Shown: positions 1,199-52,221, counted from the stretch's first letter. The stretch is 64,000 nucleotides of DNA from a virus (IMGVR_UViG_3300001528_000407:23339-87338), one strand, 5' to 3'. Numbers and translations are program-made. The notes: generated by a model from the sequence alone, not told the origin.

Positions 1199-1330
1199 TC
1201 AATCAAAACTCTCCACAAGAAAAACATTTTCTTGCCAAGCGTTAATCGTTATCGTAGGACAAAGGCTTGTCTTTAGAAACAAACCTTTGTTCTGCCCTCT
1301 TGGGTATTGGAAGAAGAAATGTCTTTTTAT
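1199..1330 (-). CDS. C5-MTase TRD-like module Tb, lacking its own ATG (ATA at the coupled position)
   Basis: (I)KRHFFFQYPRGQNKGLFLKTSLCPTITINAWQENVFLVESFD*; PTIT motif and hydrophobic-E C-terminus as in the 41.7-44.8 kb modules; the junction reads CTATAAAAA where other modules have ATGA. Confidence 0.55.
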   Translation of the reverse strand: MKRHFFFQYPRGQNKGLFLKTSLCPTITINAWQENVFLVESFD

Positions 1331-1490
1331 AGTTCCACCAATATCTTTGGCTCTATTCCACCCCCCCACATGTATGGCAAGCGGGAGCGATGCCTTGGGG
1401 ACTGAATACCCTGCGGCAAGACTCAAAACGCTTGTCATAGGGAGGGGTGTCTATAGAGCCTAAGACGATGGTGTGGATATTCTTATTCAT
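1327..1490 (-). pseudogene. C5-MTase TRD-like mini-gene Ta, poly-G OFF allele
   Basis: ATG overlaps the stop of 1483-2376; G7 (C7 at 1361-1367) gives ...CHTCGGVE*; G8 gives MNKNIHTIVLGSIDTPPYDKRFESCRRVFSPQGIAPACHTCGGGGIEPKILVEL* (54 aa). Confidence 0.75.
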
Positions 1491-2376
1491 CATCGCCATG
1501 GTTCTCGTCGGGATTCTCGTCACGGTTCTCTTCCTGTGCTGACTGCTCGTCGTGATTTTCTTCCTCGTTCCAATCAAGCGTCTTCACCAGGAAGGAGATA
1601 CCCTTGCCAAACTCTTTTTCCTCGTAACCACGATGCAAGTACCATTTCAAGACCCATTCCTCTGCCTCTCGGATATTCCACTCCAGGGCTACCGTCTTGC
1701 AACCTTGCTCCTTGGCGTTGCGCTCGGCTACTTCCAGTAGTCTTGTGGCGATATGACGGTTGCGGTAGGCTCCATTCACCCAAAGGGCATAGATGAAGGC
1801 ATCGCACTTCTGCCAGAAATCATCCTTCTTGCGCTCGTCCTCAGTAGGAATATCAAGATGCACATTGCCCACTACCACACCATCGTGGATGGCATTGGCG
1901 AGGTATCGGGTGCATTTGAACCATTTCTGAATATTCGTGGTGATACTGAAAGAGAAGGACGTGATACGTACCTGAATGCCTTCGCCGTGGGTTTCATCGC
2001 CTTTATCATCGGCTGGCTTGTTGTCGCCATTACCGTTGCCTTTTTCGTCCTTGCCATTATCAGGGTTGCCATTGGCTGCTGCATCAGATGCAAGCATATC
2101 GTAATCCACACCGAGTTCCTTGGCTCTCATGCGAAGATCCTTTTCCCTTGCCCATCGCATCATGCAGGAGAATATCCAGATGGCTACGACAAAACTAACC
2201 ACCACATGACTCACTGCTTGCTTGCCTACGGTGAAGAAGAGCTGCGATAGCTCATCGGGGTGGCAGACATCGAACGTCCATTGCAGCAGGGCATTGAACG
2301 CTAACATCAGGATGAGGGTTACGAGTATGGGCATCGAATAGATGCCCAATCGCTTCAAAAATCTCTTTGCTTTCAT
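1483..2376 (-). CDS. membrane-anchored GNAT-family acetyltransferase
   Basis: Two N-terminal hydrophobic segments; C-terminal LWVNGAYRNRHIATRLL (acetyl-CoA binding motif A) and WYLHRGY (motif B). Confidence 0.7.
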   Translation of the reverse strand: MKAKRFLKRLGIYSMPILVTLILMLAFNALLQWTFDVCHPDELSQLFFTVGKQAVSHVVVSFVVAIWIFSCMMRWAREKDLRMRAKELGVDYDMLASDAAANGNPDNGKDEKGNGNGDNKPADDKGDETHGEGIQVRITSFSFSITTNIQKWFKCTRYLANAIHDGVVVGNVHLDIPTEDERKKDDFWQKCDAFIYALWVNGAYRNRHIATRLLEVAERNAKEQGCKTVALEWNIREAEEWVLKWYLHRGYEEKEFGKGISFLVKTLDWNEEENHDEQSAQEENRDENPDENHGDDE

Positions 2377-26933: not shown

Positions 26934-27787
26934 ATGGTAAGCGAACAATTACAGCGCAAGATAGACCGAGCTATTCACCTGCTGCAAAGCGTGGCTAAGG
27001 GATATGATGGCGAGATAGAGGTAGCCTATTCGGGTGGCAAGGATAGCGATGTTATCTTGCAGCTCGCTAAAGAAGCTGATATTCGATATAGGGCTATCTA
27101 CAAGAATACAACCATCGACCCGCCTGGCACAATAAAACATGTGCAGGATATGGGTGCCGAGATATTGCGACCTAAGCAGACGTTCTTTCAGCTTTTGGCG
27201 AAGAGAGGCTTTCCCTCCCGATTTAGTCGATTCTGTTGTGCTGAATTGAAAGAATACAAGGTATTGGATAAAGCTATTGTTGGTATTCGCCGATGCGAGA
27301 GCGATAAGCGAGCCGAACGTTACAAAGAGCCTACTCTTTGCCGATACTACGGTGCCAAGCGAGAGGAAAATCATGTGGAGCAAATCTTGCCTATCTTGGA
27401 TTGGAGCGATGATGATGTCTTGCAGTTTATCGAAGACCGTAAGATAACGCTTGCACCGATATACTACAATTCTGGGGGGGGGTAATCGACGTTACTCAAC
27501 GTTTGGGCTGTATGTGCTGCCCACTTGCCACAGAGCGCAAGCGTATTCTCTACTTCAAGAAATATCCCAAGATGGTGAAAGCCTATCTTCGGGCTGGCAT
27601 GAAATTCAGAGCCTCGCATCCTGATAGTTATTGTGTCGCCCATTACGATGATGTTTACGAATGGTTCACCCGTGATGTATTCTACCCAAGAAAGAAAGAT
27701 TGGGATAGAGTGAGCGGTGGGCTTTTCGAGAAGCCAGACTATAAGGCTTTCTTGGAAAAAGAATTTGGCATAGATTTGACGCTATGA
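26934..27787 (+). pseudogene. PAPS-reductase-family protein split by a G9 tract (probable phase-variable OFF allele)
   Basis: YSGGKDS, RFCCAELKE, GIRRCES and PILDW in frame 1; TCT GGG GGG GGG TAA at 27471-27485; G7 or G10 continues as VIDVTQRLGCMCCPLA. Confidence 0.85.
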
Positions 27788-29005: not shown

Positions 29006-29776
29006 ATGATAGAACTGAATAAGATATATAATGAGGATTGCTTGGAGGGTATGAAACGCATACCCGATGCAAGCGTGGATTGCATTATTTGCGATTTGCC
29101 TTACGAGGTACTAAATCGTAGTAACAAGCATGTGCAGTGGGATAAGGTTATTCCGATGCAACCGCTCTGGGAGCAATACCTACGTATCGCAAAGCCGAAT
29201 GCAGCTATCATTCTCTTCGGACAGGGCATGTTTACCGCACAACTCATGATGAGCCAGCCCGATATTTGGCGATACAATATCACTTGGGATAAAGACCGAA
29301 AGACTGGTTTTCTGAATGCAAAGCAGATGCCTTTGCGACAGACGGAAATCATTTCGGTGTTTTATCGTGAGCAACCAGTTTATCATCCGCAAATGCGAAA
29401 GTGTTCTAAGCATGAGCGCAATCATAGCAGAGGCAGACAGCAGGGAAAACAAACTAATAGATGTTACGGTTCCTTCGGCAAAGCTGAAGACTTGATTACT
29501 GATGAGAAATATCCATCAGACCTTATCACATTCCAAAGAAACGTACACGATAGTTGGCATCCTACGCAGAAGCCTCTTGACCTTATCCGCTATCTCGTTC
29601 GTACCTACACCGATGTGGGGGGGTGCATTCTTGACAACTGCATGGGCAGCGGCACTACCGCCATCGCTTGTATCAAAGAGAAGCGCAACTTTATGGGCTT
29701 CGAGTTGAACAAGGAATATTACGACAAGGCTTGTGAGCGCATCAAATTAGAAATGATGCAGCCCACACTATTCTAA
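29006..29776 (+). CDS. beta-class N4/N6 DNA methyltransferase with an in-frame G7 tract
   Basis: DLPY (motif IV), HPTQKP and DNCMGSGTT (motif I); G7 at 29617-29623 just before motif I. Confidence 0.9.
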   Translation: MIELNKIYNEDCLEGMKRIPDASVDCIICDLPYEVLNRSNKHVQWDKVIPMQPLWEQYLRIAKPNAAIILFGQGMFTAQLMMSQPDIWRYNITWDKDRKTGFLNAKQMPLRQTEIISVFYREQPVYHPQMRKCSKHERNHSRGRQQGKQTNRCYGSFGKAEDLITDEKYPSDLITFQRNVHDSWHPTQKPLDLIRYLVRTYTDVGGCILDNCMGSGTTAIACIKEKRNFMGFELNKEYYDKACERIKLEMMQPTLF

Positions 29777-33971: not shown

Positions 33972-33998
33972 CTATTCTTTTTTTAATGTAAACAAAAT

Positions 33999-34597
33999 AT
34001 GAGTAAAGATTGGACGGGCGGTAGAGCCGCTGTATTCAAGACGCTTGGAGCGAGCAACCACAAAAATGGCGAGCGACAGCGTGAGGACTACTATGCCACG
34101 GAGCCTGCGGCTACCGAATGGCTATGCAAGATTGAGGATTTCGGGGGGGTAAAATCTTAGAGCCTTCCTGTGGAGAGGGACATATCAGCAAGGTTCTTTT
34201 GAAGCATGGGTATGATGTTACGAGCCGAGACTTGATAGACAGAGGATTTGGCGAGGGCGGTCAAGATTTCCTTGCCATTGATAACTTGTCATGGCAGGGG
34301 CATATCGTCACCAACCCTCCCTACAAGTATGCGCAAGAGTTTGTGGAGAAGGCATTGCAGATTATTCCGCCAGGATATAAGGTGGCTATGCTGCTAAAGC
34401 TGACGTTTCTTGAAGGAAAGGCTCGTAGGTATTTATTCAATACACAGCCACCTGTTAGGGTATGGGTGAGTTCTTCGAGACTGAAATGTGCGATGAATGG
34501 TGATTTCGATGCAACCGAGGGTAGCGCACAGGCTTATGCTTGGTTCGTATGGGAGAAAGGATATAAGGGAGACACCATCGTGAAATGGTTCAACTGA
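33999..34597 (+). pseudogene. small N6-adenine DNA methyltransferase frameshifted at a G7 tract (probable OFF allele)
   Basis: MSKDW...DYYATEP...DFGGVKS* with G7 at 34143-34149; G8 gives FGGGKILEPSCGEGHIS (motif I) joined to IVTNPPY (motif IV). Confidence 0.85.
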
Positions 34598-34954: not shown

Positions 34955-35268
34955 CTATAATTCCACAAACACGCATAGCTGCTGCCCATTGCTCGTAAGG
35001 GCATTGGCAAGCCTACCCCCCCGATTGTGCGGCTTCGCCTTATCGCCGAGGTGGGGTAAGCGAGGTCACACACACCAAGCACAGGGCAATCGGTGTAGCC
35101 TTGCTCCGTGGCTTGGCGTATGCGCAAGAAGGTATCGCCCGTCTCTACCTCGTTCACCAACTGGAGAAAAGGTCGGGAGGTGTCGTATATTCTATATAAT
35201 GTGCCATCGGGATAGAAGCCATATAGCTTGCCATCCTTCACGATGGTGCCTCGCTTGTAGTGTGACAT
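34955..35268 (-). pseudogene. C5-MTase TRD-like gene T11, poly-G OFF allele
   Basis: IRQATEQGY...CDLAYPTSAIRRSRTIGG; G7 (C7 at 35016-35022); G8 gives GGGRLANALTSNGQQLCVFVEL*. Confidence 0.7.
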
Positions 35269-41716: not shown

Positions 41717-41888
41717 TCACTCAAACTCGCAAATCACGTAGGGCGATGTAACGCCCATATCGTACTCATCTTTGTACGACCGCCCCCCCGAAAAATGAGG
41801 TTACGGCATTGGCGATTTGCTTTATCGGGCGGGAGGTTGCCTTGCCTGTCTTGTCACGGCTCCAGCCGATGTAATACTTCTTATTCAT
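41717..41888 (-). pseudogene. TRD-like mini-gene T10, OFF (G7; G6 or G9 is ON)
   Basis: ON: MNKKYYIGWSRDKTGKATSRPIKQIANAVTSFFGGRSYKDEYDMGVTSPYVICEFE*; C7 at 41783-41789. Confidence 0.75.
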
Positions 41889-42054
41889 AGGCCAACAGTA
41901 CTAAGTTGTCTTTACCTACGGACGTAAGGGTGTTACTTATACCCTCCCCATTTATCTCAAACCGCTGCTCCGAACGACCTTTCACCGAATGTTTACGGTC
42001 GGAAGGATTAAGAGGGTCTCGCCCTCTCGACGCAGCTATGAAAACTCCATACAT
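41881..42054 (-). CDS. TRD-like mini-gene T9, intact
   Basis: MYGVFIAASRGRDPLNPSDRKHSVKGRSEQRFEINGEGISNTLTSVGKDNLVLLAYE* (57 aa); interrupted GGGGAGGG. Confidence 0.8.
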   Translation of the reverse strand: MYGVFIAASRGRDPLNPSDRKHSVKGRSEQRFEINGEGISNTLTSVGKDNLVLLAYE

Positions 42055-42222
42055 AGTAAATTATCTTTCGTCACAGTAGAAATCGTGTTGCTCCACGGCT
42101 CACGGCTCATCCTGTGATATTTATCTTGATACTTGCACCCCCCCCGTATCTCCGTGAATGCGGCGAAAGGATTTCGCTTCTTCCGTCCGATAGTGGGTAA
42201 GGATGGCTCTCTGTTCACTCAT
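42036..42222 (-). pseudogene. TRD-like mini-gene T8, OFF (G8; G7 is ON)
   Basis: ON: MSEQRAILTHYRTEEAKSFRRIHGDTGGCKYQDKYHRMSREPWSNTISTVTKDNLLCMEFS*; C8 at 42138-42145. Confidence 0.8.
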
Positions 42223-42364
42223 AACTCAATAGTATCATTGTATGCTGACCGTGGTTGTCGTAGAGACCTCCCCAGCCATCGTATCGGGAAGAGAGTGCCG
42301 TGGAGTACCTCCCCCGAAAACTTATCGTGTCGCCTCGCTTCACAAAAGGTCTTACTTTATTCAT
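42215..42364 (-). CDS. TRD-like mini-gene T7, intact
   Basis: MNKVRPFVKRGDTISFRGRYSTALSSRYDGWGGLYDNHGQHTMILLSYE* (49 aa); interrupted GGGGGAGG. Confidence 0.7.
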   Translation of the reverse strand: MNKVRPFVKRGDTISFRGRYSTALSSRYDGWGGLYDNHGQHTMILLSYE

Positions 42365-42505
42365 ACGCTATCAATATTGCTATTGCCTTAATCAAAAAGT
42401 TGGTATCAGGCAAGATATTCGACACACCATCTTTATAATAATGGGATGAAATCGTACCACATACCCCCCTATATTTGGAGTATTGAGAAACCTCTTATCA
42501 ATCAT
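42357..42505 (-). pseudogene. TRD-like mini-gene T6, OFF (G6; G7 is ON)
   Basis: ON: MIDKRFLNTPNIGGVCGTISSHYYKDGVSNILPDTNFLIKAIAILIAYE*; C6 at 42464-42469. Confidence 0.75.
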
Positions 42506-42652
42506 ACTCTATCAATATCTTAGGCTTGTCTGTATCATGCCCTTTACCCCCCCAGATATACAGAGGGCGATACCTTTTGGCGATACTACCACCCCATTCT
42601 GCGATGGGGAATAGTAACCAAGAATAATCGGGCGATTTACTGTTTGTCTCAT
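42498..42652 (-). pseudogene. TRD-like mini-gene T5, OFF (G7; G8 is ON)
   Basis: ON: MRQTVNRPIILGYYSPSQNGVVVSPKGIALCISGGGKGHDTDKPKILIEYD*; C7 at 42547-42553. Confidence 0.8.
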
Positions 42653-42821
42653 AACTCAATCATCACATAGTGCATGTTGCGCTGGCTAATACCCGAAAGA
42701 ATGGTGCCACAGCACCCCCCCGAATTGCTACCTTATTATAGGCATCCAGCCACTCGCATTTATCACGAGGGCGATAACCTATGGCAAACATCTGCTCTAT
42801 GTTTTTGTTCTTTTTGTTCAT
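42649..42821 (-). pseudogene. TRD-like mini-gene T4, OFF (G7; G8 is ON)
   Basis: ON: MNKKNKNIEQMFAIGYRPRDKCEWLDAYNKVAIRGGCCGTILSGISQRNMHYVMIEL*; C7 at 42715-42721. Confidence 0.75.
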
Positions 42822-43007
42822 TCGTATTCATACATTACAACCGTCATTGGATAATGGGCGAGCGAGAGGATATTGGTAGGCCCGATATTCTCATATCTCG
42901 TGGTGATAGTCGCCGCACAATTATCGCTTGTTACATTTATCGGTCGTCGAGTACCCCCCCCTATAATTCAAGCAAGGTATGCCGACGTTTGTCAGTCTGA
43001 ATTTCAT
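42818..43007 (-). pseudogene. TRD-like mini-gene T3, OFF (G8; G7 is ON)
   Basis: ON: MKFRLTNVGIPCLNYRGGTRRPINVTSDNCAATITTRYENIGPTNILSLAHYPMTVVMYEYE*; C8 at 42954-42961; ATG overlaps the MTase TGA. Confidence 0.75.
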
Positions 43008-44407
43008 TTCTTATCAGAAGGTTTTCTATTCAGATTCTCCAAATACTTTTCCTCGAACCCTGGATATTCACTCGGCAAAGTACCGTCCTGCTTCCACGAT
43101 GAATAATCATAGGTAAACTTCCCGATAATCATTTTCTCGCAAATGAGCTTATCCAGTTCGGTAGGCTTCATCTTCCACCCATCAACCTCTTCCATCCAAT
43201 ACGTGAGCCAAGTCTTCAAGAACATGGCATCCTCATGCTTGGGTGGCAAATCGAAAGTTACGAACAATGCGCTGTCCTTGTCGTTCGCCTTGAGAAACTT
43301 TGCCACGGCATTGTCTTTGAGGAAGTACTTTTCATCCACCTCCTCTTCCAACACATCCTCCAACTTCCTTTCGAGCTTCACAGGCTTAGGAAACTGATAG
43401 TCGAAAGCCACGTCTTTTCTCATCGAGAGGCAGAAAACTCGATCTCGATTCTGAGGCACACCGTAGTCCTTGGCATTCAGTCGTGCCCATCGGTTCACGT
43501 AGCCAAGTTCTTCCAACCGTTTGAGCCACTTCTTGAAATCGGGCATAAACTTCTCGCTTACCAGTGCCGCCACATTCTCTTGCAGGAGATATTTAGGTTT
43601 CAATACCTCGATGGCATCGGCTACCTTCCAAAGCAAGGCACTTCGGGTGTCGCTACCCTCTTGCAACCCCATCTGCTTACCAGCCTGACTAATGTCCTGG
43701 CAAGGTGATGAGTAAGTGAAAAGGTCAACCTCTCTGCCTTGCAAACTCTCCTTCACCTTCTGCCAGTCTATCTTGGTAATATCGCCGAGTGCTCGGTGAG
43801 CGAACTGAGGGAAGACGAGGTTGTGCATTTGGCAAGCATATTTGTCGATGTCGCTCCAGCCATAGCAGGTGTATTTGAAATCGGGGTGTTCCTCTCGTAA
43901 GGCATCGGCTGCCATCAACTGACTGTCATAGCCGCTGAAGGTAGTGATAATGACTTTCTCCTCGGGTACCACCTTATCCTCATCGCTGATAACGATATTC
44001 TCATCATGCGGATTCTTCTCCACTGGCATCGACGGCAATACGTCTTCGGGGAAGAAATCATCGAAGAGCGAGGCTTGTGCCTTTGGCTGCACAGGTGCAG
44101 GGTACCAAATCTGCTCATATATCTTCTTCAACACATCTACCACGATACTGTTGCCGGCTTGCTTGTATTGTTGGCTGGCGGATATGAGCATATCATCGTC
44201 CTTGCCTTTCAGCTTGCCGAATATCTTGCTGAACATTTCCTTGCCAAATGCGCTCGATATGCGAGTCTTGGCGAGGGAGATTGTACTTTGCATCAAGAGG
44301 ATGATTCCGTCTCTGACACCCATCAGGCGAAAACACTCCTTGGGTGTGAGCTTGCGGATGGCATAGCTCTTAATGCTCTGGTCTTTGAAATTTATCTTCG
44401 TTATCAT
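43004..44407 (-). CDS. circularly permuted DNA (cytosine-5)-methyltransferase core lacking a TRD
   Basis: N-terminal IRKLTPKECFRLMG (IX) and YKQAGNSIVVDVL (X), then TFSGYDS (I), SSPCQDIS (IV), LQENV (VI) and YGVPQNRDRVF (VIII). Confidence 0.9.
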   Translation of the reverse strand: MITKINFKDQSIKSYAIRKLTPKECFRLMGVRDGIILLMQSTISLAKTRISSAFGKEMFSKIFGKLKGKDDDMLISASQQYKQAGNSIVVDVLKKIYEQIWYPAPVQPKAQASLFDDFFPEDVLPSMPVEKNPHDENIVISDEDKVVPEEKVIITTFSGYDSQLMAADALREEHPDFKYTCYGWSDIDKYACQMHNLVFPQFAHRALGDITKIDWQKVKESLQGREVDLFTYSSPCQDISQAGKQMGLQEGSDTRSALLWKVADAIEVLKPKYLLQENVAALVSEKFMPDFKKWLKRLEELGYVNRWARLNAKDYGVPQNRDRVFCLSMRKDVAFDYQFPKPVKLERKLEDVLEEEVDEKYFLKDNAVAKFLKANDKDSALFVTFDLPPKHEDAMFLKTWLTYWMEEVDGWKMKPTELDKLICEKMIIGKFTYDYSSWKQDGTLPSEYPGFEEKYLENLNRKPSDKK

Positions 44408-44443
44408 TGTCTGTTGTTGTTTTACTTACGTTTTATCAATACC

Positions 44444-44597
44444 CTATTCATACATGAGAAGTACACCCGCATCCAATACGTTAGCTTTAACGCACCTTCC
44501 TAAATTCCACAATGGCCCATTATTAAACATGGCTGACGATTGCGTCATTACCCCCCCCGATTTTCGGGACATGATAATCTATCTTAATCTTACTCAT
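44444..44597 (-). pseudogene. TRD-like mini-gene T2, OFF (G8; G7 is ON)
   Basis: ON: MSKIKIDYHVPKIGGVMTQSSAMFNNGPLWNLGRCVKANVLDAGVLLMYE*; C8 at 44551-44558. Confidence 0.7.
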
Positions 44598-44772
44598 ACA
44601 CGATTGCTATTACTGGTGTCTGCCCACCGCCCAACCCCATTGCCGAGGTAAGCGTGAAGCAAATATCCCTCAAAGAGCAAAAGGTGTTTAACCCATGTGC
44701 TTGCATATTGCCGAACACGGAAGTAGTCTCTATTTTTTTTACTATGATGGCTATCGCCTCTGCTCTAATCAT
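44590..44772 (-). CDS. TRD-like mini-gene T1, intact
   Basis: MIRAEAIAIIVKKIETTSVFGNMQAHGLNTFCSLRDICFTLTSAMGLGGGQTPVIAIVYE* (60 aa); Gly run encoded by mixed codons. Confidence 0.8.
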   Translation of the reverse strand: MIRAEAIAIIVKKIETTSVFGNMQAHGLNTFCSLRDICFTLTSAMGLGGGQTPVIAIVYE

Positions 44773-44799: not shown

Positions 44800-44892
44800 T
44801 GCAGGGAGAGGGAATCGAACCCCCGACCATCGGCTACCCGAATCTACATCGCCATTCTGCCGACACTCTAACCAGCTGAGTAGTACCCCTGC
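44800..44892 (-). tRNA. tRNA-like element with a 24-nt anticodon loop (intron-containing or pseudo-tRNA; isotype undetermined)
   Basis: Acceptor GCAGGGG/TCCCTGC-A; D arm ACTC-AGCTGGTTA-GAGT; anticodon stem TCGGC/GCCGA; T arm GGGGG-TTCGATT-CCCTC; no encoded CCA. Confidence 0.65.
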
Positions 44893-48218: not shown

Positions 48219-51200
48219 TCAGAACGGCAAATCACTCTTATCTATCTGCGATACCATTTCGGCACCCGTACCAGGAGCGTTGCCATTTCCGCTGTTTATC
48301 CTCCTGCCTTGCTTACGAAGTTTGTTGTTCTGCCAGCGTTCCTCCTCTTCAGGAGTAAGCGTAACGATGTCACCGTTCTCATCACGATATGGCAGAGGGT
48401 CCGGTCGCTCGGCATATTCATGGGCGATACGTTTCAACTCCTCGTAGCTGCCAGGAACCTCGTCCTTGCCCGAACGATAGAAGAAGAACACATGTTTCGA
48501 GGTTTTCATATAACGAATATACTTCGGCTCGATGGTGTTGTCGTTCTCCCACTCCCTGCCAACGAAATATTCTTGCGTTACCCAGGCTTTCAACTTGAAG
48601 CACCTGCGCTGCTTGTCACCCGCATTCTCGAAGAGGTGAGGAGGGTTGCAGATGATGCCCACATTCTCGCAGTAATCATAGATCTTCTTCTTGAACGTGG
48701 CACGGCTATACTCCTTGCTCTTGCCCTCGCTGGCATCTGCCCAATCTCGCATGAACTCATTGAACATATCATCCGTGCAGATAGGAACGGAAAATACCTC
48801 GTTGCGTGAGAAGAACCACTCGAAGTATCTCACGATGCTCTCCGTAAGTTTCTGTACCATCTGACGACGGCGAACGTTCTGCTGAGGAGCGATGGCAAAC
48901 GTATGGTACCGCATGATGAATTGCACTGCCAAGGCACATATATATATGGTCTTGTTTCTGTCTGCCGGACTCAAATCCTCGGGCTCTGGCTTGAAGCCTT
49001 TCATCACGTCGCTCGGTGAGCGAGGTGGCTTGCGCTTCTGCTGGTTGTCTCTCGCAAATCTATCCGAGAAACTAACCAATGGAAATCTACCTACCGTACT
49101 GTCATCATCATCGCTCAATGGCGAGTTGCTGGTGATAACGTGCATCGGCGACTCCTTTCTATCCAGAGTAACAGGGTCGCCAAACTTTCGCTCCACATCG
49201 GTGCCCGAAGTAACGAAGTTGTAAAAGTACTTCAGTGGAAAGCTCTTCGGCTTATCCTCCCAATGTATCACCCGATACTTGCCAGGGTCTTGGATGATAG
49301 GCGTAAGCGAAAACTTAGCATCGTTGATGGTGAGAAATTTCTTCATGTTCACGTTCAATACGTTCACAGCCGAACCTACCACCAGCTTTATCATCACAGA
49401 CTTGCCTGAGCCACCGCTTGCCTCCTTTTCGTTCTCGATAGTATCTTCGAGGAGATAAGGACAAATAGGCTGCATCCCTTCCCAGGAGCGACAGCAAAGG
49501 CGACCGATGCAGCTTATCATGTTCACAAAGTGAGAGTTGATAACTGCCATCTGGTCTTCCGTGAGTTCCTGCTTGCTTCTTAACGCTTCTTCCTCTACCT
49601 GCCAAAGCACGTTTGAGCAACCACGTATCACTCGCAAGATACCCCACATATCCCTTTCTCGGTTTTCCTTCCAATGCACGCTCCAGTGATGCAGTTGCGC
49701 CCACTCTTGCAGCTCTGCCCTCATCTGCTTAATCTCGCCATAAGAATAGACCGGCGAACCATCCTCGTTGCGCATAGCGTCTTTGTCGTCGATGGCTTGC
49801 AAGCGTTGCTTGTAGGCTTCGCTCTCGGTGATAACGAAAGGTGCATCGGGGAACCGCTGCATCGTGAAATCATATTCTTTTCTTGCCGAAGCAGGGATAA
49901 AGAAGTTGATTCTATCATAGTTCACGGCTGATATAGTATCAGGCGTGATTTTCAATGCCACATTGTTGAAATAGAACCATTCCGTGTTATCATTGTAACC
50001 TTCGGAAAAATCTATTGTTAGTGGATGCAAACTACCCGCCGAAGACATCGTAAAAGTCTTATCCACGAGGTTGGCACTATCCTCCATCAACTTTCGTTCC
50101 TGGTCTGAATATCTCAAGCCCAACTCCTTGATGTATTTCAAGAGGAGATTCTTCACCTCCTGAATGATGGATTTCTCGTCGATATAATGCACGAAGCATT
50201 TTTCGAGATAGATGAATTTGCCCACCTTATCGGTGGAATTGGGGTCCACCATACGATAATATCCGTTGCAGGTCATATAGAGCCAAACTTTCGTAGGCGA
50301 TACCTTGCATACAGGTGGCTTGGGCTTTCCGCTACGTGGGTCGCGTGGATATTCCAGGTTGAACGGATTGACATCGGTTGCCGTCCTCAATATCGAATAG
50401 AGAGGCATACGAATGTCGTGGTCGTACATGAAATTGTCGGTCTCCGTCATACGGTAGGTTATCATGTAGTCTCTCACCGAACGAGGCGAACAACCATACA
50501 GCCACTGCCAACGCTGGCTAAACTTCCATTTAAAACCATCGGGCAACATGGCATAACACAGCGTATTATATTTCACGCAGATGGCTCCACAATCCCTTTG
50601 ACTCGCAATATCATTAGGGTAAAGCATGATAACCCTCTCGGCAAATCGCTTCATCTTCTGATACTGCACGGCGTTGAAGTCCAGTTTTTCCTGCCTCCAC
50701 TGTCCGTGGTCGATATACCAAAAGTTTCTCCTACCGATGGAGAAAGCCACATGATACCAACAATATTTCTGGAAATGATTATCCGAAAACTTATCACTCC
50801 TCAAGGAACGCATGGCATAATATACGCTCAGTGCATCTTCGGGCGTGCGACAGAACACGATATTTTGCGCCTTGATGTCGCCTGCGTCGATGTTCTTCTG
50901 CTCGGAATGGAATGTGCCTTTCGGCTCTCCGTCCTTGGTCTCGTTCTCCACCCATATTTCTTCCTGCTCGGTGTATTGCTCGTAAGGGTCGAATTGTTCG
51001 ATGGCAGATTTTACCGCCGTCGATTTCTCGCTACGATGATCCATGGCATAGGTGAAAACCTTGTCGCCCATGAGCCACTTACTCACTTTCCTCACCGTAT
51101 GCTCTTCGTTGGTGCTGAAGACAATCGGATCTTGCTGCATCGCAGGACGGAAGAAGCAACCGCATGAGCCTTGTGGGGCTATCACGTCGGTGGCAAAGCA

Positions 51201-51914
51201 TACAAACAGTGGATTCCAGGGTGTGCCATAAATCACCTCGCTCACCAACTGCCCTTGTCGCATTACGTTAGGTAGAGTAACCTTATCCACCGCATAGATG
51301 CGGAAATCGTTGTTGAGCATGGGTGTATCGAAATCCTTGCCAAACCCGAAGTGTGGTAAGCCCTGCTGAAGAGTGACCTCGCACCCCAAGGCTGCAAGCT
51401 CTTGGGGATTGAAGTCAGTCTTAGGCAAAAATGAGAAAGTCTCTATCGTTTGTGGGGCAATCGTTCGATAATCCATCTTGGCGAAGAGCATAGGCCACTT
51501 GGCTCTTACCTCTTCCTTGTCGCCATACACTCGCACCACAAGGTCGTGGCAAAGGCGAAGCAAACTCGCTCCGTGCATCGGCAAGTTGCGCATGGCAGCA
51601 TAAAGTTCCAGGGCTCCATACCCAGACTTACCCGTCTGCGTACACATCCACCGGATAGCACCGTGCGATGCTGCCTTTTCTTGATCCGTCACGCCTACAC
51701 CATTGTATAATCCTCCTCGCTGGTTCTTGTAGATGATGAAATGAGGAGTCTGTTTAGTGTGGGCATCATCCGATGCACCATCATCAGCCACCTTCTTCTG
51801 ACAGAAAGGACAGAAGCAGGCTATCTGATTCTCTATGTGTTGCTCCTCGGCTGGCTTCACAAGGAAAGTCAAGTCGATGTTGGCGAGCTGGTTGATAATC
51901 GGATGATATAACAT
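48219..51914 (-). CDS. DNA primase-helicase
   Basis: N-terminal CFCPFC Zn finger, TOPRIM-like PEDAL...YPND, SF3-like Walker A SGGSGKS and IHWED; ends in DLPF. Confidence 0.75.
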   Translation of the reverse strand: MLYHPIINQLANIDLTFLVKPAEEQHIENQIACFCPFCQKKVADDGASDDAHTKQTPHFIIYKNQRGGLYNGVGVTDQEKAASHGAIRWMCTQTGKSGYGALELYAAMRNLPMHGASLLRLCHDLVVRVYGDKEEVRAKWPMLFAKMDYRTIAPQTIETFSFLPKTDFNPQELAALGCEVTLQQGLPHFGFGKDFDTPMLNNDFRIYAVDKVTLPNVMRQGQLVSEVIYGTPWNPLFVCFATDVIAPQGSCGCFFRPAMQQDPIVFSTNEEHTVRKVSKWLMGDKVFTYAMDHRSEKSTAVKSAIEQFDPYEQYTEQEEIWVENETKDGEPKGTFHSEQKNIDAGDIKAQNIVFCRTPEDALSVYYAMRSLRSDKFSDNHFQKYCWYHVAFSIGRRNFWYIDHGQWRQEKLDFNAVQYQKMKRFAERVIMLYPNDIASQRDCGAICVKYNTLCYAMLPDGFKWKFSQRWQWLYGCSPRSVRDYMITYRMTETDNFMYDHDIRMPLYSILRTATDVNPFNLEYPRDPRSGKPKPPVCKVSPTKVWLYMTCNGYYRMVDPNSTDKVGKFIYLEKCFVHYIDEKSIIQEVKNLLLKYIKELGLRYSDQERKLMEDSANLVDKTFTMSSAGSLHPLTIDFSEGYNDNTEWFYFNNVALKITPDTISAVNYDRINFFIPASARKEYDFTMQRFPDAPFVITESEAYKQRLQAIDDKDAMRNEDGSPVYSYGEIKQMRAELQEWAQLHHWSVHWKENRERDMWGILRVIRGCSNVLWQVEEEALRSKQELTEDQMAVINSHFVNMISCIGRLCCRSWEGMQPICPYLLEDTIENEKEASGGSGKSVMIKLVVGSAVNVLNVNMKKFLTINDAKFSLTPIIQDPGKYRVIHWEDKPKSFPLKYFYNFVTSGTDVERKFGDPVTLDRKESPMHVITSNSPLSDDDDSTVGRFPLVSFSDRFARDNQQKRKPPRSPSDVMKGFKPEPEDLSPADRNKTIYICALAVQFIMRYHTFAIAPQQNVRRRQMVQKLTESIVRYFEWFFSRNEVFSVPICTDDMFNEFMRDWADASEGKSKEYSRATFKKKIYDYCENVGIICNPPHLFENAGDKQRRCFKLKAWVTQEYFVGREWENDNTIEPKYIRYMKTSKHVFFFYRSGKDEVPGSYEELKRIAHEYAERPDPLPYRDENGDIVTLTPEEEERWQNNKLRKQGRRINSGNGNAPGTGAEMVSQIDKSDLPF

Positions 51915-51942: not shown

Positions 51943-52221
51943 GACGAAAGATAGACCCACCGAGATAGGCGAGGCCAAACTTCAAGTGTTCTCCACCAAG
52001 CCATTTCGCAGTGTTACAAGCCCTTCGCTCTGTGCTCCCGAAGCCCACAAATTCGGGGGGGGTACTGGGTGTGGTCGGAGCTTTAAATCTGTAAAGACTC
52101 AGCTCCCCTCCCCGATTGCGTCCATTAAAGCACAGTGCTTTGATGGGCACAGCTTGATGTCGTTAGGAACGAATGCAGAGGCGTTTCCGCTACTCTTCGC
52201 CTTTCGGGGGTCTATATCGTC
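51943..52221 (-). ncRNA. candidate structured non-coding RNA (about 280 nt)
   Basis: Long closing stem GACGA.TAGACCC...GGGTCTA.TCGTC, GCG-GAAA-CGC and C-TTCG-G loops, several internal hairpins; intergenic upstream of the primase gene. Confidence 0.5.

Follow-up and report, generated by a model that had tools for sequence, protein, structure and literature searches.

Evidence for an array of separate target-recognition-domain genes around a permuted cytosine methyltransferase core in a tailed phage

C5-cytosine methyltransferases (C5-MTases) with several specificities are known from Bacillus phages, in which M.SPRI, M.Phi3TI, M.Rho11sI and M.H2I carry target recognition domains (TRDs) in tandem within one polypeptide, between motifs VIII and IX (Trautner et al. 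1996, EMBO J 15:1434, as cited in PMC12707154). The locus described here lies in a stretch of 64,000 nucleotides (nt), hereafter the window, which is part of an 87-kilobase (kb) IMG/VR virus record (IMGVR_UViG_3300001528_000407:23339-87338). It consists of a C5-MTase core gene surrounded by ten mini open reading frames (mini-ORFs) that appear to encode TRDs as separate modules. As in the Bacillus phage enzymes, one catalytic framework would be served by several TRDs of about 40-50 amino acids (aa), each conferring one specificity, in an anti-restriction role for the phage, and the modules resemble Bacillus phage TRDs in their size and their T-L type core. Unlike in those enzymes, each TRD here has its own gene, the core is permuted and TRD-less, and modules are found on both sides of the core as well as at remote places, most of them with a hypermutable G-run.

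The same lineage and the same TRD families are represented by Dulem virus 40 and by a 545-aa enzyme from a prophage in a metagenome-assembled genome (MAG; locus L091), both known from annotation only. In contrast to the window, their TRDs are fused in tandem in one chain, and motifs I-VIII are encoded by a separate upstream gene (Dulem virus 40) or stand in canonical order (L091). C5-MTases in pieces are also known: for the split enzymes M.AquI and M.EcoHK31I and for engineered split or permuted M.SssI, M.MpeI and M.HhaI, fragments assemble in trans and permutants can be active (PMC3404938, PMC5944983, PMC3439449, PMC2836561), which makes the pairing of a core with a TRD piece biochemically plausible. 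However, those enzymes are made of two fixed fragments with one specificity and no competing library of small TRDs.

Hypermutable poly-G tracts have been reported in the receptor-binding genes of Campylobacter Fletchervirus (Sorensen 2021, Cell Rep 35:109214), and phage contingency loci include a poly-G run in the methylase gene of BPP-1 (bioRxiv 10.1101/2025.10.21.683753). As in these tracts and in phasevarions (Type I/III methyltransferases), homopolymer slippage causing reversible frameshifts would switch a function in part of the population; whereas the described cases concern one run in one enzyme or receptor-binding protein, here many modules of one C5-MTase would be switched and their states would combine. 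Type I HsdS follows an analogous logic, with an exchangeable specificity subunit on a constant catalytic subunit, but the proteins are unrelated: HsdS serves adenine N6 methylation, its TRDs differ in fold and size, and there is no homology. Multispecific C5-MTases, split C5-MTases and phase-variable methyltransferases are all known, and it is their combination that is unusual. Our literature search gave no description of free-standing TRD gene arrays, in agreement with an earlier reading of this DNA made from the sequence alone (the sequence-only reading), which knew of none.

The methyltransferase core and its flanking mini-genes

Three-frame translation around the core revealed ten mini-ORFs on the minus strand, two upstream and eight downstream, with restored lengths of 49-62 aa. 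The sequence-only reading had placed them in the same way, and the motifs that it had quoted are present in the restored peptides. The units are listed below in their coding order; Gn denotes a run of n G residues, and OFF a unit whose reading frame is broken as sequenced.

44590-44772, minus strand: T1, TRD mini-gene; intact, 60 aa; core motif CFTLT; without a G-run
44444-44597, minus strand: T2, TRD mini-gene; OFF; G8 at 44551-44558; stops at 44523 (24 aa); with G7, 50 aa ending in MYE
43004-44407, minus strand: C5-MTase core, 467 aa; PF00145, expect value (E) 3.5e-53, 181.6 bits (cut-off 22)
42818-43007, minus strand: T3, TRD mini-gene; OFF; start overlaps the stop of the core (ATGA); G8 at 42954-42961; with G7, 62 aa, core motif AATIT
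42649-42821, minus strand: T4, TRD mini-gene; OFF; G7 at 42715-42721; with G8, 57 aa, LDAYNK...CGTIL
42498-42652, minus strand: T5, TRD mini-gene; OFF; G7 at 42547-42553; with G8, 51 aa
42357-42505, minus strand: T6, TRD mini-gene; OFF; G6 at 42464-42469; with G7, 49 aa, core motif CGTIS
42215-42364, minus strand: T7, TRD-like mini-gene; intact, 49 aa; core motif YSTALS
42036-42222, minus strand: T8, TRD mini-gene; OFF; G8 at 42138-42145; with G7, 61 aa, core motif SNTIS
41881-42054, minus strand: T9, TRD mini-gene; intact, 57 aa (SNTLTSVGKDNLV)
41717-41888, minus strand: T10, TRD mini-gene; OFF; G7 at 41783-41789; with G6, 56 aa, core motif ANAVT

The motifs of the core run in the order IX-X, linker, I-VIII, a circular permutation, instead of the canonical order I-VIII, TRD, IX-X. 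Motif IX (RKLTPKECFRLMG, residues 18-30) and motif X (QAGNSIVV, 83-90) are followed by an atypical motif I with G-Y-D-S at 155-163 (TTFSGYDS, 155-162), motif IV at 233-240 (SPCQD, with the catalytic Cys236), motif VI (ENV 277-279, in QENV 276-279), motif VIII (QNRDRVF, 319-325) and a C-terminal extension (340-467). An alignment of 18 homologues shows no variation at Cys236, E277-N278-V279, R321, R323 or G85-N86-S87. The permutation was traced against a canonical PF00145 enzyme of the protein collection, P0038 (403 aa). Its residues 32-224, which span motifs I/II to VIII and the following segment, correspond to residues 186-374 of the core, and its motifs IX and X (339-401) have their counterpart in core residues 2-100. 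T9 aligns with 63% identity to P0038 residues 301-349, exactly the stretch absent from the core. Judged from these alignments, the core is devoid of recognition loops of its own, the TRD stretch being precisely what it lacks, and we are nearly certain that the locus combines a TRD gene array with a TRD-less permuted core.

The TRD identity of T9 was established with a profile built from its alignment (A3), which retrieved 475 longer proteins at E<=1e-3 among 5.8 billion, nearly all of them PF00145 enzymes (best E 1.3e-22), and T9 maps between motifs VIII and IX of these enzymes. The modules were also compared by blastp with a small local database, composed of the proteins retrieved with the T9 profile and those of Dulem virus 40. 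In this database T1, T6 and T8, as well as the remote modules Ta, Tb and Tc described below, match PF00145-bearing proteins with E from 1e-5 to 3e-14, T1 matching residues 470-510 of a 725-aa PF00145 protein (E 1e-5), and T10 and T3 match weakly (E 0.002-0.003). The sole matches of the family-8 profile (A2) in the PDB are the TRD loops of M.MpeI (301-329) and M.HhaI (239-257), at a non-significant E of about 0.7; PDB profile searches with A1 and A3 found no methyltransferase, and single-peptide phmmer searches of the PDB with T5-like and T9 peptides gave no useful match. The comparisons point to TRD identity strongly for T9 and well for six others, and for the remaining modules this identity is suggested by context and by the shared motif pattern.

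Each module has its own ATG and stop, in a reading frame that differs from its neighbour's. The overlap of each start with the preceding stop, which the sequence-only reading had claimed throughout except for T1, is found at most junctions; it is lacking between T2 and the core, where a 36-nt gap separates stop and start, and T9 starts as much as 17 nt ahead of the T8 stop. A scan for sigma-70 promoters and terminators gave none above shuffled expectation inside the array.

A scan of IMG/VR viral contigs detected 246 related loci, of which 80 were analysed. An intact TRD-less core of 432-467 aa is present in 73 of 77 relatives, and no TRD is fused to the core in any of these 73. In the four other loci (L029, L040, L042 and L059) the core is stopped early, at codons 47, 101, 101 and 280, respectively. 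Among the small ORFs around the cores, 19 clusters were scored TRD-like, and nearly all end in ...IEY[ED], ...YE or ...VEL. The number of modules per locus has a median of 9 and ranges approximately from 2 to 15, with about 2-3 upstream and 7 downstream. The order and content of module families differ between loci, indicating gain, loss and swap; this turnover had been named beforehand as something that a comparison of relatives could reveal, and it was seen together with retention of the split layout in the same 73 of 77. The next ATG stands exactly 5 nt ahead of the stop codon's first base (tATGAnTAA) in 371 of 796 array ORFs (47%) versus 50 of 1544 control small ORFs (3%) across the 80 loci, and it is because of this overlap that the terminal Tyr-Glu/Asp is conserved. 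Such an arrangement suggests coupling by termination and reinitiation of translation.

Pairwise ratios of non-synonymous to synonymous substitution rates (dN/dS) of module tails are 0.05-0.23 for those in frame and 0.03-0.39 for those currently out of frame. Together, the conserved layout, the overlaps and the low dN/dS argue for maintained coding sequences and not debris. Head-segment values of about 1 in some clusters were disregarded, as unrelated heads of equal length had been compared. Further relatives were found in MAG contigs labelled human-gut, rumen and sheep-colon. Matches in Deep Blue, Bcp1 and related Bacillus phages, seemingly permuted cores, proved to be two adjacent canonical MTase genes and were rejected as relatives of this architecture.

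Remote modules, modelled complex and fused relatives

Two further places in the window carry modules of the same kind.

1199-1499, minus strand: Ta/Tb, remote pair of modules, 40 kb from the core; G7 at 1361-1367
34955-35268, minus strand: Tc, remote module, 8 kb from the core; G7 at 35016-35022; with G8, 104 aa ending in ...ANALTS...VFVEL

At the Ta/Tb run, Ta (ending in ...PKILVEL) is completed with G8, and with G6 or G9 the frame runs on into Tb (QYPRG...CPTITIN...), a module that lacks its own ATG. By blastp, Ta (E 3e-14) and Tb (E 1.7e-13) match the starts (residues 1-53 and 2-39, respectively) of collection proteins retrieved with the T9 profile, and Tc matches a PF00145 protein with E 3.6e-11. 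Since these modules are 8 and 40 kb away from the core, joining in cis is excluded for them and they could act only in trans.

The T7 family (A5) is conserved, with only 15 longer homologues, mostly double modules of 90-180 aa and one with PF00145, so T7 is not shown inside canonical enzymes. P0108 (121 aa) and other 90-180-aa matches of this family are fusions of two mini-modules, one T9-like and one T7-like. Such two-module proteins indicate that neighbouring modules are sometimes read as one chain, as Ta-Tb would be in the G6 or G9 state.

The core (alignment A4) and T9 (alignment A3) were modelled together, a check that the sequence-only reading had proposed. The interaction prediction score from aligned errors (ipSAE) was 0.77, 0.77 and 0.75 in three runs, against 0.00 for the best of 3 controls, so the predicted complex passes its controls. 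Of 80 solved complexes 58 attain the pass mark, as do 2 of 110 mismatched pairs; this calibration is only approximate here, our own alignments having been supplied. Contact agreement between runs was at least 82%. In the model, the end of T9 (residues 50-57) pairs with the stretch of the core that immediately precedes motif IX (residues 13-20). The T-L loop lies within T9 residues 37-48, which are turned towards three parts of the core, namely motif X (78-86), motif VIII (313-322) and its C-terminal extension (345-398).

The fused relatives show the same elements in other arrangements. Dulem virus 40 (PP511379.1, lemur faeces) has a 258-aa gene for motifs I-VIII followed by a 373-aa beta gene. 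In the product of the latter, a tandem row of five or six TRD-like segments precedes motifs IX-X and a QLSLFDD tail. T9 aligns with this beta protein at residues 94-136 (E 7e-11), and the family-8 profile matches residues 64-92 (hhalign E 6.9e-6), adjoining the T9-like module back to back; Ta and Tb match residues 56-91 (E 0.007) and 164-196 (E 9e-5), respectively. Core residues 15-118 align to beta 286-373, QLSLFDD tail included, with 44% identity (E 1e-15), and the tail of the beta protein corresponds to the internal linker of the core. The 545-aa MAG prophage enzyme (L091) shows the canonical fused order and a similar tail. It had been anticipated that relatives carrying the region as one continuous ORF would speak for a decayed gene; the one-chain form was found only in these distant relatives, at 42-44% identity, which from their sequences look like the ancestral state and not like the intact version of a decayed gene. 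A fused multispecific enzyme may first have been divided between an alpha and a beta gene; the part of a beta gene that encodes IX-X would then have been joined to an alpha gene, and the TRDs would have been cut into separate genes flanking the core on both sides.

G-runs in the modules and the phage genome

Half of the G/C runs of at least 7 bases in the 64-kb window (6 of 12) fall within the 3-kb array, all with G on the coding strand. As sequenced, the open units are T1, T7 and T9 only. The seven closed units are each one G away from frame, by -1 for T2, T3, T8 and T10 and by +1 for T4, T5 and T6, and the one-G correction joins a head to a tail that ends in a conserved ...Y-E/D or ...E-L stop. 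All seven array frameshifts are located at G6-G8 runs, and a homopolymer run inside the coding sequence sets the frame in these seven units as well as in Ta and Tc; the runs lie in a Gly-Gly codon stretch. The sequence-only reading had described the mini-ORFs as short or frameshifted: seven are indeed frameshifted, three are open, and the G-run basis of the breaks had escaped it.

Runs of the related loci were grouped by their 45-nt flanks, allowing at most 4 differing bases per side, and run length varies in 24 of the 47 flank-matched groups. One group comprises G6 (1 locus), G7 (6), G8 (11) and G10 (1), with only G7 and G10 in frame. The reading frame is kept by 111 of 124 G5 runs (90%) and by 37 of 116 runs of at least G7 (32%), the latter share being near the one-third that chance alone would give. 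Length differs within 10 of the 11 clusters of long array runs versus 0 of 16 C5 clusters, and a G7 within the core ORF is G7 in 19/19 loci that have it. The same mixture of lengths, from G7 to G13, is present in MAG contigs that carry SPAdes assembly names.

The individual families behave alike. In relatives the T2 family has G6-G9, and T4 is in frame with G5 and G8 and out of frame with G6, G7, G9 and G10. The T5 homologue is intact with G8 in L024 and frameshifted with G7 in L001, and the T8 homologue is out of frame in both (G6 in L001, G8 in L024). The position of the G-run differs by TRD family, before or after the T-L loop, indicating that the runs arose independently. Taken with the low dN/dS that out-of-frame tails show, the run-length variation is more in keeping with reversible slippage, as at contingency loci, than with decay or miscalls, and genuine phase variation at the DNA level seems probable from these sequence data.

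G-runs are also found in other DNA-modification genes of the phage and are therefore not confined to the TRD array. A gene with a PAPS-reductase domain (3'-phosphoadenosine-5'-phosphosulfate; 26934-27784, plus strand; PF01507, E 3.4e-13) is interrupted at a G9 (27474-27482), beyond which another frame continues via ...RLGCMCCPLA... to 27784; this G9 is a candidate further poly-G switch. Genes of the PAPS-reductase type are often tied to phage DNA modification. A probable adenine methyltransferase gene (33987-34594, plus strand), with ILEPSCGEG and NPPY motifs and no Pfam match at E<=0.01, begins in a different frame, its N-terminal head being joined to the rest at a G7 (34143-34149), and is OFF as sequenced. 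An N6_N4_Mtase gene (29006-29773, plus strand; PF01555, E 8.5e-29) contains an in-frame G7 (29617-29623). One G8 (52055-52062), upstream of a 1231-aa gene (48219-51914, minus strand), has no evident coding context in any frame.

Genes of the window for a 1822-aa tape-measure protein, a head maturation protease and a DNA polymerase processivity factor of the sliding-clamp type point to a tailed phage. A crAss-like label was considered and is not established, the gene content showing a tailed virus with a tape-measure protein. The array region gave zero blastn matches among 50,697 phage records. The sequence-only reading had spoken of Prevotella phages, which was not confirmed: the close core relatives L084-L090 come from MAG bins named Prevotella (twice), Oscillibacter, Oscillospiraceae, Clostridium sp. 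CAG:302 and Anaerobutyricum, and since these labels contradict each other, the contigs are probably phage contigs binned by chance. Directly upstream of T1 lies a tRNA-like element of 93 nt (44800-44892, minus strand), which scores 41.5 bits with the Rfam tRNA model (gathering score 29, model positions 1-71) and in which ARAGORN, run also with introns allowed, reports no tRNA. The element may represent a degenerate copy, or else a tRNA enlarged by an insertion or by a long variable arm.

Proposed mechanism, rival explanations and significance

We propose that the locus encodes a multispecific anti-restriction C5-MTase made of one core and a library of free-standing TRD subunits, an interpretation that we consider likely. 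That the TRDs are separate, exchangeable subunits of one core, as the sequence-only reading had supposed, is supported computationally by homology, the TRD-less core, conservation, selection, the remote modules and the model, and action of the modules in trans on the core is accordingly the predicted mode that we favour with some reserve. Each mini-gene would yield one module of about 50 aa, translated separately, that holds a final beta-strand as well as the T-L type recognition loop. Modules would join a core molecule singly and complete its small domain; the last strand of the module would pair with core residues 13-20, and the module would pack on motifs VIII and X and on the C-terminal extension. 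An infected cell would thus hold a mixture of holoenzymes with differing specificities. Slipped-strand mispairing would alter the length of the G-runs and turn each specificity ON or OFF independently, T1, T7 and T9 alone being ON in the genome sequenced here. More tentatively, the phage population might hold up to 2^n methylomes, with n of about 9 switchable modules here, a stochastic combinatorial anti-restriction served in trans. The likely benefit would be bet-hedging, since methylation blocks classical restriction but provokes the methylation-dependent kind.

Several other explanations of the broken frames were weighed. The modules could be real trans-acting TRD subunits that are all constitutively ON, the frameshifts being homopolymer miscalls in metagenome assemblies. 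Each frameshift is indeed exactly at a G-run, and some A7/A8 runs differ between near-identical loci. However, lengths span G5-G13, beyond one base either way, corrections run both ways (four units by -1, three by +1), and the same pattern is seen in IMG/VR contigs and in SPAdes-named MAG contigs from different studies. Moreover, the G7 of the core ORF is constant in all 19 loci and no break interrupts the window's large ORFs (1822 and 1231 aa), and we hold miscalling to be quite unlikely as a general explanation. Another possibility is that the runs act at the level of RNA or the ribosome, through transcriptional slippage or programmed frameshifting; every gene would then produce some full-length module at all times, and run length would tune its amount instead of turning it on or off. 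Slippage of RNA polymerase on homopolymer runs is established in other systems and lends this explanation some support; it would also account for purifying selection on out-of-frame tails (dN/dS 0.03-0.39), and a share of 32% in-frame long runs would do little harm if some product arose at every length. Yet the 90% of G5 runs that keep the frame indicate that the frame matters, and length polymorphism is seen directly in the DNA. We regard this explanation as rather unlikely, although it is compatible with phase-variable TRD subunits and does not exclude them.

It could also be argued that the array is the decaying remnant of a continuous multi-TRD gene such as that of Dulem virus 40, with mini-ORFs reduced to pseudogene fragments and a core that is inactive or uses another recognition element. 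The existence of fused tandem-TRD relatives, the 7 frameshifted modules out of 10 and the 4 broken cores among 77 relatives would agree with decay, but at least 80 loci retain the split layout with an ATG for each module and stereotyped overlaps, dN/dS stays well under 1 in out-of-frame tails too, module content turns over among relatives, modules occur at remote loci too and the catalytic motifs of the core are invariant; these observations make decay very improbable. Finally, the mini-ORFs might be silent cassettes that recombination copies into a core-fused expression site, like pilin or hsdS shufflons. The conserved module ends (...IEY[ED], tATGA) could in principle be used as recombination sites. 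However, a core-fused TRD occurs in 0 of the 73 relatives with an intact core, and the mini-ORFs are all co-oriented and each has its own start codon. No recombinase was noticed beside the array, recombinase genes and inverted repeats not having been searched for, and such a cassette system appears extremely improbable.

Some observations weigh against switchable, trans-acting TRD subunits. For T2, T4, T5 and T7, neither blastp with the small database nor the profile searches demonstrated a match within a full-length MTase, so the TRD homology that the sequence-only reading had expected of the peptides holds for T9, T1, T6 and T8, weakly for T3 and T10, and not for these four. A likeness of T5 to the TRD of M.HhaI was considered; the PDB profile search did not reproduce it and it is not claimed. 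In the model of the core with T9, the predicted local distance difference test (pLDDT) score of the partner is modest (53-54), and since T9 docks at the place that the TRD occupies in solved monomeric enzymes, the pass may reflect likeness and not binding. As for the switches, all seven array modules with a G-run are OFF here, which has a probability of about 6% under random phase. Some flanking A7/A8 runs vary as well (4 of 14 groups), and the constancy of the core G7 is possibly due to selection, which leaves some room for homopolymer miscalls.

If the modules work in trans, they would represent a third route to DNA-methyltransferase specificity, besides the fused TRD (Type II and SPR-type enzymes) and the large separate subunit (HsdS), with a specificity element pared down to a peptide of about 50 aa, the missing piece of the small domain. 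To our knowledge, how several TRDs share one core in multispecific enzymes has not been settled by a solved structure, and this question would become testable with separable parts. Phage contingency loci would extend from receptor-binding genes to the epigenome, with an independent switch for each specificity. Exchangeable TRD peptides on a constant core would also offer a natural plug-in scaffold, or toolkit, for programmable, targeted writing of 5-methylcytosine. Given their abundance (246 IMG/VR loci, in addition to the gut, rumen and sheep-colon MAG contigs), these systems may shape phage host range in those communities.

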